DNA of 64,000 bases from contig MGHG01000012.1 of NCBI GenBank assembly GCA_001793095.1, positions 8,647 to 72,646 of the forward strand, read 5' to 3'. The position numbers were made by a program. Of this stretch, positions 27,001 to 30,000 are shown in pieces. This DNA comes from Candidatus Woesebacteria bacterium RIFCSPLOWO2_01_FULL_39_23. GTDB lineage: Bacteria; Patescibacteriota; Microgenomatia; UBA8517. Numbering within the stretch: the first letter of the stretch is position 1; every line of letters begins with the position of its first letter.

Positions 27001-30000
27001 ATGAGGAGCTGAAAATAAAAGAAGGCGTTATGGATTACGGGGATTTGATAGTCAAAACCTTGCAGCTTTTCCGTGAACGACCAAATATCCTGGCTAATTA
27101 TCAAAAGCAGTTTAAGCATGTGTTGGTTGATGAATTTCAGGATACTAACGTCGCACAATATGAACTCCTTAAACTCCTCGCGCCGCCAATAAATAACGGT
27201 AATTTAACTGTCGTAGGCGATGATAGTCAATGTCTCCCCCCGAGCGCAAAGATTACTACCTCCGATGGGGATAAAAAAATAAAAGATATTCATGTTGGAA
27301 ACAAAGTATTAACTGCTGTTGGGAAAGGTCATACTTCGCTGTCAAGAGTAACGCGCGTGTTTAAAAGAGTGCGGAAAGTTAAAATGCTTACTTTTAGAAC
27401 AGAAGATGGTAAGACTTTGAAGGTGACGAACAATCATAAGTTGTTTTCTTTTCTACCAGCTTTCTACGTTTCAAAAGACTGGCACTTTGTCTATTTAATG
27501 CATCAAGAGAACTTAGGTTGGAGGATAGGAGTAACAAATAACCTTCCTGCGCGACTAAGAATCGAACATCATGCTGACGATATCTTTGCACTAGGTTCTT
27601 ATAAAACTGATCAGGAGGCAAGGTTTTTCGAGTCATATTTGTCAGCAAAGTATGGTTTACCGACCATTCCCTTTTTGCCACGACCTCGACAGGCGATTTC
27701 TGGTAAATGGCTTACCAGGTTATTTAAAGATATTAATACGAGCAAAAATGCCCAGATTCTTGCTAAAGATTTTGGTTTAGAACTTGATTCTCCTGTGTTT
27801 GCTGTAGATGGAGTTACTAGGGGTGTAAGTAAGAGAGTGAAAGTAAATTTAATGATGTGTCAGAGAAATTACAGAAGTAAGACCCATAAAAACGGATTTG
27901 TTAGGAACCCCGGAGTTTTACACTCCGTGTACTTAGAGACATCCAGCAAGAAAGTTATCGATCTTCTAGAAAAAGCAGGATATATGCTTCAAAAAGCCAA
28001 AAAGGGTAAAAGGTTTCGTATGGCGACTGCGAATTTAGCAGAAGCCTGGAATTTAGCAGAAAAATTATCTAAAATCACGGGCGGGATTATAGATAAGAAA
28101 TTTTCTGTAGGCAGATACAATTATCAACATTTACCAGCCCGTGTAGTTCCAGCAAGTCATGTTTTCCCCGGAATGTATTTACCAGTTCTAGTTGATAAAT
28201 ACGTTGAATACAAAATGGTTGTTTCTCGTAACGAGAAGGTCGAAACAATACAAACTTATGATTTAGAAGTCGAAAAAACTCATAATTTTATTGCAGATGG
28301 AATCGTTGTTCACAATTCAGTCTACAAATTCAGAGGCGCTGCTGTATCCAATATTTTGTATTTTAAAAAAGATTATGCAAAAACAAAGACCGTCGTTTTA
28401 ACCAAGAATTATCGCTCCACCCAGACTATCCTTGATTCTGCATATAGATTAATCCAACACAACAATCCGGACACTTTGGAATCGCAACTCGGAATAGACA
28501 AAAACTTGGAAAGTGTAACTAACTCGGAGGGTGAAGATATAGCGTTTTTCCATCGAGACAGGGTAGAAAATGAGGCCGAAGCAATAGTCAAAGAGATTAT
28601 TAGTTTGACAACAAAGAACAAAAAACTCTCTGAGCCTGAGGCTCTTCTCCGAACTCAGAGGTTCTCCGAACCGGAAGTCAAGAGCCAGGGGCAAAGAACA
28701 AGGTATGAATACAATGATATAGCAATTCTTATTCGAGCAAATGACCATTCGGAGCCATTCATAAGAGCTTTTCAAAGACACTCTGTCCCTTATCAATTTT
28801 TAGGCCCCGGTAGACTTTTCAGGCAACCTGAAATAGTTGATTTAATTTCTTATTTAAAAGTATTAACTGATCTTGATGATTCGCTTTCTTTTTATCGCCT
28901 TCTCTCCCTTGATTATTTTGATATCTCGGCAAAAGATATTATTCGAATAAGCAGTTATGCAAAAAGATATAACATGTCGTTGTTCGAGGCTGCTGAAAAA
29001 ATTGATGACTCTACGACAGGTCATTCGACCGTAAGCTCAGACCGAATCGGCTCAGGGCAAGGCATTTTTGTCAGCGAGGACACAAAGGAGAAAATAGCGA
29101 AATTACTTAAGATAATAAATAAATATATTAATCTCCTCAAAAAAGAAACTGCGGGTCAGTTATTATACAATTTCTTAGAGGACACAGGACTATTGCAAAA
29201 GTTCTTAAACCCCGATAATCCTGAAGCACAAAAACGAGCCCAAAATATTTCCAAGTTTTTCGATAAACTTAAAACTTACGAAGTTGAGCACGAAGACGCA
29301 AGGGTTCCGTTAGTTGTAGACTGGATTGAGCTTTCAAGTGAGTTGGGGGAATCGCCGCTGGCTGCTAATTTTGACTGGTCGGCGTCAAATGCGGTTAATA
29401 TTTTAACTGTCCATTCTTCGAAAGGCCTCGAATTTCCTGTCGTATTTTTAGTAAATTTGGTATCACAGCGCTTTCCTACAATTGAGAGGCGGGAACAAAT
29501 ACCGATTCCGGATGAGTTAATTAAAGAGGTATTACCCCAAGGTGATTATCACTTAGAGGAAGAAAGAAGGCTTTTTTATGTCGGGATGACCAGAGCTAAA
29601 GAAAGACTTTATTTTGCGGGTGCTGATTATTATGGTGAAGGAAAGAGGGAGAAAAAGCTCTCGCCTTTTGTTTTTGAAGCACTGGGCGATAAGGTAGTGG
29701 CAAGTGAGCAGACTGTGGTTTCCGGAGAACAATTAAGTTTTCTCGACTACAAAATTCCTGATCATAAAATACTAATCACTAACCACGAGTCACCGACCAC
29801 CGATTTACACATCGATTTTCTATCGTTTTCTCAAATCGACGCCTTTAGGATTTGCCCGCTGCATTATAAATTACGTTATATTTATAATGTTCCCACTCCT
29901 CCTTCGGCGAGTTTAAGTTTTGGTACTTCTATCCATTTAACGATGAAAAATTTTTATGAACGAGTTAAGGCTGGAAGTAAGCCAACGGAAAAATTATTAT

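Follow-up and report, generated by a model that had tools for sequence, protein, structure and literature searches.

A class-1 intein in helicase motif III of a Candidatus Woesebacteria helicase-nuclease with a conserved, GIY-YIG-like middle domain

Canonical class-1 inteins with a nested endonuclease, such as PI-SceI, PI-PfuI, PI-PkoII and the Mtu RecA intein, carry a Cys at position 1, a TxxH block and a terminal HN followed by a +1 nucleophile; their Hint fold is split by the endonuclease region, they invade a catalytic motif of a DNA-metabolism enzyme, and their distribution is patchy. All these features recur in an element found in the 64,000-nucleotide stretch of Candidatus Woesebacteria bacterium RIFCSPLOWO2_01_FULL_39_23 analysed here (contig MGHG01000012.1, positions 8,647 to 72,646; hereafter the window), in which a 362-amino-acid (aa) insert interrupts motif III of a helicase-nuclease gene. 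In-frame intein nucleases are, according to reviews, LAGLIDADG or, rarely, HNH enzymes, and GIY-YIG enzymes are restricted to group I introns and genes that stand free; two papers describe GIY-YIG enzymes as not known in inteins (Dunin-Horkawicz et al., 2006, PMC1564403; Dassa et al., 2009, PMC2677866). Endonucleases of non-canonical type in inteins are the subject of a preprint of 2025, which lists in-frame HNH, antisense LAGLIDADG or Vsr-like and out-of-frame EndoVII-like enzymes, the antisense and out-of-frame architectures occurring in some actinophage inteins (bioRxiv 10.1101/2025.01.02.630785), and UvrD inteins are counted (n=16) in the survey by Novikova et al. (PMC4760082). Our searches of the open-access literature turned up no in-frame GIY-YIG intein, an absence that is not proof. 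The region between the Hint halves of the window's insert is predicted to contain a GIY-YIG-like core, and we consider it probable that the whole is a class-1 intein with a nested GIY-YIG-type homing endonuclease.

Homing endonucleases of GIY-YIG type that are encoded in group I introns or by phage genes standing free (I-TevI, I-BmoI and the Seg proteins) share with this middle domain the predicted beta-beta-alpha-beta-alpha core, a Tyr and an Arg (and, in the middle domain, a candidate Glu) at the motif positions with matching spacing, and a modular build of catalytic core, linker and separate C-terminal module. The GIY-YIG domains of Slx1, of the UvrC N terminus and of UPF0213 differ from it in being host repair or structure-specific nucleases outside mobile elements, and their scores are all modest. 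GIY-YIG-type nucleases have also been tied to intein-interrupted replication and repair genes in the "fractured genes" (Dassa et al., 2009, PMC2677866), a likeness that extends to P0031, a free-standing relative on contig L004 described below. In fractured genes, however, a free-standing GIY-YIG or Vsr-like endonuclease lies between split-intein halves, whereas the nuclease in the window lies in frame within a contiguous intein.

The same intein family occurs at the same site in Escherichia phage PaulScherrer (MZ501100, bas60_0082) and related Justusliebigvirus and Phapecoctavirus phages (VVGDEFQ/C...SHN/CIYQFRGS, with slashes at the splice junctions), with the core VVYLM..GFRVG..R..E..E..YGIPT. 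Unlike the window's element, the PaulScherrer intein is 347 aa long and sits in a phage helicase without a PD-(D/E)XK domain; its record names an "intein-containing UvrD/Rep family helicase precursor" and a plain "intein", and does not mention a nuclease. Because phage records such as bas60_0082 annotate it, the motif III intein is already known at the annotation level in a few phages, and it is an ordinary kind of element. What the present analysis adds is the nested domain, which represents a large family, conserved and under selection, whose predicted fold is GIY-YIG-like; according to the literature surveyed, inteins of this kind do not exist.

The intein and its insertion site

Positions 27231-28316 (+) of the window form 362 stop-free codons whose translation begins with CLPPSAKITT and ends with IVVHN, followed by Ser. 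The extein flanks read ...NLTVVGDDSQ before the insert and SVYKFRGAAV... after it, so that motif III is cut between Gln and Ser, and block B is present as TNNHKLF (T66, H69). The insert reaches 53.1 bits with Pfam Intein_splicing (cut-off 35.8) and 32.7 bits with Hint (cut-off 29.7), and NCBIfam intein_Nterm scores 37.3 bits (cut-off 24.5) over residues 1-72 and intein_Cterm 39.0 bits (cut-off 15.6) over residues 342-362, which confirms that it is an intein. Removal of the insert in silico yields VVGDDSQSVYKFRGA, which aligns without gaps both to motif III of an uninvaded PcrA/UvrD paralogue in the window, VGDASQSIYSWRGA, and to that of the closest intein-free orthologue, P0152, VVGDDSQSIYKFRGA. 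The initial annotation of a 362-aa intein splitting motif III exactly, between VVGDDSQ and SVYKFRGA, is thus borne out: profile searches detect both its N- and C-terminal domains above cut-offs, and a colinear motif is restored on excision. The parts of the element and the genes around it are as follows.

26421..30557 (+): host gene, superfamily 1 (SF1) helicase of UvrD/PcrA type with a C-terminal PD-(D/E)XK nuclease (Pfam domains), intein inside
26421..27230 (+): N-extein, helicase domains 1A/1B as far as motif III (...VVGDDSQ)
27231..28316 (+): intein, class 1, 362 aa (Cys1 ... His361-Asn362, +1 Ser)
27231..27464 (+): N-terminal part of the Hint domain, residues 1-78, with block A Cys1 and block B T66..H69 (NCBIfam intein_Nterm)
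27465..27686 (+): GIY-YIG-like nuclease core, residues 79-152 (predicted fold)
27687..27800 (+): residues 153-190, with a pair of helices (158-167 and 170-181), a putative linker or DNA contact (model)
[quoted passage not shown]
28128..28316 (+): C-terminal part of the Hint domain, residues 300-362, with block F D344 and block G H361-N362 (NCBIfam intein_Cterm)
28317..30557 (+): C-extein, helicase domains 2A/2B and PD-(D/E)XK nuclease, whose first residue is the +1 nucleophile Ser (SVYKFRGA...)
29820-30551 (+): PD-(D/E)XK nuclease within the C-extein
33844..35772 (-): uninvaded PcrA/UvrD paralogue, 642 aa, motif III intact

The position of the insert was also read from a profile of 74 homologous proteins, which matches the solved PcrA in two pieces (PcrA 8-254 to profile 2-248, and PcrA 255-723 to profile 609-1038), with the ~360 intein positions falling exactly between them. 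Since the PcrA match is broken between 254 and 255, the insert comes after the motif III Gln (PcrA Gln254). The reconstructed intein-free target site has AATTTAACTGTCGTAGGCGATGATAGTCAA and TCAGTCTACAAATTCAGAGGCGCTGCTGTA on the two sides of the insertion point; the paralogue, whose intact motif III had been pointed out in the initial annotation, is identical to this site at 34 of 60 nucleotides and no more. The G+C content of the intein is unremarkable, and the 64-kb window contains no second Hint domain, no second copy of the nuclease module and no Rfam family at gathering score.

Homologues of the middle domain were collected by an exhaustive HMMER profile scan of 1.84 billion cluster representatives, which returned 340 proteins at E ≤ 1e-3, 64 of them at E ≤ 1e-10, and nearly all the sequences are SF1 helicases, whether of UvrD/PcrA type, fused to a nuclease or of the phage type (~900 aa); a word-index protein search with the same domain gave one fragment only. 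Full-length homologous inserts begin with Cys in 73 of 73 cases and end with HN in 72 of 73, the +1 residue being Ser (51), Cys (21) or Thr (1), and every one of them lies at GDxxQ/[SC]IYxFRGA. Such constancy of the junction residues in 73 inserts excludes chance as the source of the intein call, and the splice blocks that had been described as canonical are indeed so across the family. Because all full-length inserts share splice residues and site, they are, as judged from sequence, one intein allele family specific to motif III. In the 74-sequence alignment C1, H69, D344 and N362 are invariant, and T66 and H361 are conserved at 99%. Together, these features make it almost certain that the segment 27231-28316 is an intein.

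Family members are rarely recognised as such in public records. A RefSeq protein of the cyanobacterium Leptolyngbya belongs to the family and is named merely "UvrD-helicase domain-containing protein". A tblastn search of GenBank phages with the window's own middle domain gave no match; with the phage-type member P0070 it gave 55 records, from phages of Escherichia (Justusliebigvirus and Phapecoctavirus), Klebsiella and Streptococcus, mostly labelled "DNA helicase" or "hypothetical protein", few of which annotate an intein. For PaulScherrer and its related phages, the alignment to this query takes in the first half of the middle region only. Among the records, four of ~146 kb labelled "Campylobacter phage" (MG065639, MG065645, MG065656 and MG065689) have match statistics identical to those of the Escherichia Phapecoctavirus/Justusliebigvirus phages, and their host labels may be worth checking. 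Some helicases of the family carry a second, upstream intein. In P0065 (residues 224-516) and P0143 (residues 250-544) this intein, located by eye at motif II (DE/CQD), has an in-frame DUF559 insert (39.4 and 49.0 bits, respectively; Pfam cut-off 20.6), and in P0044, P0063 and P0102 the upstream intein is of LAGLIDADG type instead. DUF559, which we take to be Vsr-like, would be another nuclease class seldom listed as in-frame in inteins.

The middle domain: predicted fold, conservation and function

An AlphaFold model of the intein, built with the 74-sequence family alignment, is of high confidence (pLDDT, the score predicted for the local distance difference test, 96.2; predicted template modelling score, pTM, 0.92) and places three parts between the Hint halves: a beta-beta-alpha-beta-alpha core, a helical pair (158-181) and an alpha/beta module (195-296). 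The core elements are, in order, beta 85-92 (VYLM, Y88), beta 96-102 (GWRIG, R98/G100), alpha 105-111 (R108, followed by E112), beta 117-124 and alpha 127-141 (E134), after which comes YGLPT..F. A structure search with the model ranked seven structurally distinct GIY-YIG entries straight after the Hint matches, and no other fold recurred; the helical pair had no specific fold match and the C-terminal alpha/beta module no convincing known relative. Single-sequence searches of residues ~79-299 gave no match in Pfam, NCBIfam, PHROGs or PDB sequences. In agreement with the initial annotation, profile searches of the insert found no LAGLIDADG, Hom_end or HNH match at E ≤ 1, and no such motif or fold is recognisable.

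The sequence of the core points in the same direction as the model. When 38 family cores were scanned singly, PF01541 (GIY-YIG) was the only Pfam family matched repeatedly (6 of 38; MUG113 once), with matches extending over model positions 2-69 of 78. A core profile searched against PDB sequences gave as its top match 1zg2 (UPF0213), in register and non-significant (E 0.14), a protein that we take to belong to the GIY-YIG family. As a reference, seven catalytic domains of I-TevI type were taken from annotated phage genomes and aligned; their invariant columns are Y6, Y17, G19, R27, H31, E75 and N90. In the intein family, Y88 (VYLM, strand 1), invariant in the 74 sequences, is at the position of the first motif Tyr and aligns with the first Tyr of 1zg2. 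The motif Gly, G100, is likewise invariant, and lies eight residues before the invariant R108 of helix 1, the same spacing as from G19 to R27 of I-TevI. The candidate metal-binding Glu is the invariant E134, in an EAR..E helix within the region that aligns with PF01541 positions ≤69 of 78 and with the Glu of 1zg2; E134 would be equivalent to I-TevI E75.

Several observations set limits to this assignment. The best PF01541 score, 20.9 bits (E 4.5e-4), is under the gathering score of 22.6, and the window's own core has no PF01541 match at all. Furthermore, an hhalign comparison of the intein core with the I-TevI-type alignment was negative (probability 1.3%), its sole pairing, IGVTN with VGSAK, lying in the expected register with G100 opposite I-TevI G19. 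The second motif Tyr (the "YIG" of strand 2) is replaced by an invariant Arg, R98 in WRIG, and the 74-sequence alignment has no invariant Asn after E134, where a conserved YG(I/L)PT..F stands instead. Because of the Arg in place of the second Tyr, the lack of an evident conserved Asn and the weakness of the sequence-profile support, we file the core as a GIY-YIG-like fold that is probably a divergent member of the superfamily, and not as a proven member. That the core is related to GIY-YIG enzymes in the broader sense seems to us likely.

The strictly invariant residues of the family other than those of splicing (Y88, M90, R98, G100, R108, E134 and P144) all lie in the core, with G96, E112, A130, Y141 and F148 conserved at ≥90% in the same alignment, and none lies in the C-terminal alpha/beta module. 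The ratio of nonsynonymous to synonymous substitution rates (dN/dS, Nei-Gojobori) between the window and three orthologous inteins (L007-L009) is 0.05-0.15 over sub-regions and ~0.05 in the core, with 0.08-0.19 for the helical pair, which indicates that the middle domain is under purifying selection; in the extein, dN is 0.20-0.22 and synonymous sites are saturated. Exteins are absent from four relatives, which are 360-380 aa long; in all four, C1, the His of block B, D344 and H361 are gone, as is N362 in three of them, yet each keeps 11 of 11 conserved middle-domain residues. Since these residues are kept without splicing residues or exteins, the function of the domain is independent of splicing.

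One such relative, P0031, is encoded at 5001-6137 on L004 (ENA ERZ27316532 k141_909044; locus 3528-7531), a phage-like contig, by a separate 378-aa open reading frame (ORF) that has a start of its own. Two genes flank it: one encodes the N-terminal half of the helicase and ends after motif II, and the other encodes the C-terminal half, starts MPFVAIFDQDQLLFRFNGA and has an intact motif III; this fractured-helicase arrangement is present on six contigs. P0031 is intein-shaped, lacks Cys1, TxxH and HN and has the full GIY-YIG-like motif, and it looks like a non-splicing, free-standing descendant of the motif III intein family. In contrast to the described fractured genes, its ORF retains degenerate Hint parts and the flanking genes have no split-intein halves.

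An endonuclease encoded antisense or out of frame was also considered. The only sizeable antisense stretch is a 95-aa ORF at 27394..27681; it shows no conservation, and the possibility was therefore dismissed. Together, three independent lines of evidence, namely purifying selection, the extein-less relatives and the lack of a competing frame, indicate that the middle domain is functional. The initial annotation had described the region as a possibly "degenerate or unusual" endonuclease or linker; unusual it is, while degeneracy is at odds with a fold predicted at pLDDT 96, strong conservation, purifying selection and the GIY-YIG-like core.

A separate observation concerns BFVD entry A0A8S5TZY8, a 782-aa Myoviridae "adenine-specific DNA methyltransferase", which ranks third among the viral structural matches of the middle domain (E 1.9e-6). 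Such a match hints that this protein may contain the nuclease module or a whole intein in a non-helicase host, or may be wrongly annotated.

Mobility, proposed mechanism and alternative readings

The distribution of the intein is patchy: it is carried by 5 of the 120 closest orthologue clusters, that of the window included. In four of four comparisons intein identity (70-85%) exceeds extein identity (66-74%). At fourfold-degenerate sites, divergence from L007 is 0.42 in the intein and 0.64 in the extein (permutation p=5e-5) and that from L008 is 0.51 and 0.66 (p=0.006), and the four remaining pairs show the same direction (p 0.018-0.26). Against L007 the dip is deepest at window positions 27681-28041 (intein residues ~150-270), where 10 of 43 fourfold sites differ, and nucleotide identity is 89-91% in the intein interior compared with ~70% in the extein. 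This interior dip would be explained by a recent exchange that involved only part of the intein, or by constraint at the nucleotide level. Together, patchy presence and lower divergence indicate that the history of the element differs from that of the host gene. The dip could also come from recombination between inteins, and for this reason we treat it as a suggestive signal of mobility.

Class-1 protein splicing follows an established pathway. By this pathway the Hint domain (residues 1-78 and 300-362) would excise the insert after translation and join Gln to Ser, restoring motif III. The unspliced helicase-nuclease should be inactive, because the insert occupies the place of PcrA Gln254. The module nested in the Hint domain, composed of the GIY-YIG-like core, the helical pair and the alpha/beta module, would act as a homing endonuclease: the core would cleave helicase alleles that have no intein, close to the codons of motif III; the DNA would be recognised by the helical pair and the orphan alpha/beta module, perhaps together with the surface of the Hint domain; and repair by recombination, with the intein-carrying allele as donor, would place a copy of the intein there. 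If it behaves as I-TevI-type enzymes do, the enzyme may act as a monomer that cuts at a distance from the insertion site; GIY-YIG enzymes typically leave 3' overhangs of 2 nt. We lean towards the view that the middle domain is an active homing endonuclease.

A middle domain derived from GIY-YIG enzymes might instead be non-cutting, serving as a DNA-binding or regulatory module that makes splicing conditional on DNA or damage, or as a scaffold for the Hint fold. Conditional splicing as a switch is an established idea for other inteins, and in the catalytic motif of a repair helicase it would presumably be an effective one; R98 at the place of the second Tyr, the lack of an evident Asn and the sub-threshold Pfam scores also favour a domain that does not cleave, and purifying selection is compatible with any function. 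The extein-less relatives, however, keep the motif residues with no splicing to regulate, Tyr, Arg and Glu are invariant at the presumed catalytic positions, and patchy distribution with synonymous divergence lower than the host gene's fits a mobile element better, so that we regard a non-cutting role as unlikely, if deserving of attention. Resemblance of the core to GIY-YIG by convergence, with the domain belonging to an undescribed nuclease or DNA-binding family whose catalytic centre perhaps lies in the C-terminal alpha/beta module, appears improbable: seven distinct GIY-YIG structures follow directly on the Hint matches with no other recurring fold, GIY-YIG is the sole recurrent Pfam family and is aligned along nearly the full model, the motif residues and their spacing agree, and the strict invariance is in the core and not in the C-terminal module.

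Still less can be said for a decayed LAGLIDADG or HNH domain or mere linker, as in a mini-intein in the making, or for a true endonuclease antisense or out of frame. The absence of a recognisable LAGLIDADG or HNH motif, the antisense ORF at 27394..27681 and the description of such architectures elsewhere (bioRxiv 10.1101/2025.01.02.630785) would speak for these possibilities, which the tests run in this analysis contradict and which we hold to be very improbable. That the insert does not splice and the host gene is a disabled helicase pseudogene is scarcely credible, given that C1, T66, H69, D344, H361, N362 and S+1 are all intact, that the frame is open across 1378 codons in a protein recovered repeatedly, and that extein dN is low despite saturated synonymous sites. 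A class-1 intein with a nested homing endonuclease of GIY-YIG type is accordingly the reading that we prefer.

The host gene and the significance of the family

The host protein matches PF00580 (UvrD-helicase, 1.4e-72), PF13361 (UvrD_C, 5.3e-51) and PF12705 (PDDEXK_1, 5.6e-31), as expected from its initial annotation as a UvrD-type helicase with a nuclease. The further label "AddA-like" holds for the architecture of helicase plus PD-(D/E)XK nuclease only. The NCBIfam AddA model TIGR02785 scores 182 bits against a cut-off of 708, with the PcrA model higher at 433 bits, and no AddB gene adjoins the host gene, the neighbours being RmuC, an unknown gene and NUDIX; because AddA models score far under their cut-offs and AddB is not adjacent, the host is not to be classed as AddA. 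The closest orthologues of the spliced extein, at 60-77% identity, are labelled Patescibacteria or Candidatus Woesebacteria and named ATP-dependent helicase or PcrA, and intein-free orthologues span 100% of the spliced extein with identities up to 73-77%. The longest ORF around the insert is 26352..30557, 1401 aa counted from GTG 26352, and this is the version called in public collections. Orthologue N termini agree with ATG 26421 (MKLNKEQ), and the first 23 codons (window 26352-26420) are probably not translated, because the orthologues begin around this point. The identical 1401-aa protein is present on at least 24 independent metagenome contigs, and the interrupted gene is therefore not an assembly artefact.

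At the C terminus of the host protein (window 30480-30554), the nuclease domain closes with a cysteine cluster, CSKNFLCDKCEYSLFC, which, judged by eye, recalls the iron-sulfur cluster nucleases of AddB/Cas4 type. The PD-(D/E)XK region also has a weak Cas4 match, under cut-off (TIGR00372, E 6e-7).

Inteins and homing endonucleases serve as models of selfish-element evolution and as sources of tools for protein engineering and genome editing. The present family also exposes an annotation gap, since neither Pfam nor PHROG has a family for its middle domain and the label in most records is a plain "DNA helicase" or "hypothetical protein". Whether this is the first recognised intein family with an in-frame homing endonuclease of the GIY-YIG superfamily, with its full life cycle documented and its orphan module a new DNA-recognition domain of a monomeric nuclease, we judge to be finely balanced, leaning slightly towards doubt. 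If so, it would constitute a third class of in-frame intein nuclease after LAGLIDADG and HNH, would overturn the statement that GIY-YIG enzymes are absent from inteins, and would make available a compact nuclease that acts as a monomer and brings a new recognition module. Cultured E. coli phages are among the carriers of the family, which puts direct tests of homing, cleavage and splicing within reach. The life cycle would then run from an active intein, through sporadic spread over bacteria of the candidate phyla radiation, cyanobacteria and phages, to a decayed state in which nucleases that stand free and no longer splice divide the helicase gene. A GIY-YIG-type core within inteins would show that the Hint domain has captured this nuclease class as well, in support of the model in which the splicing domain came first and was repeatedly invaded by endonucleases.

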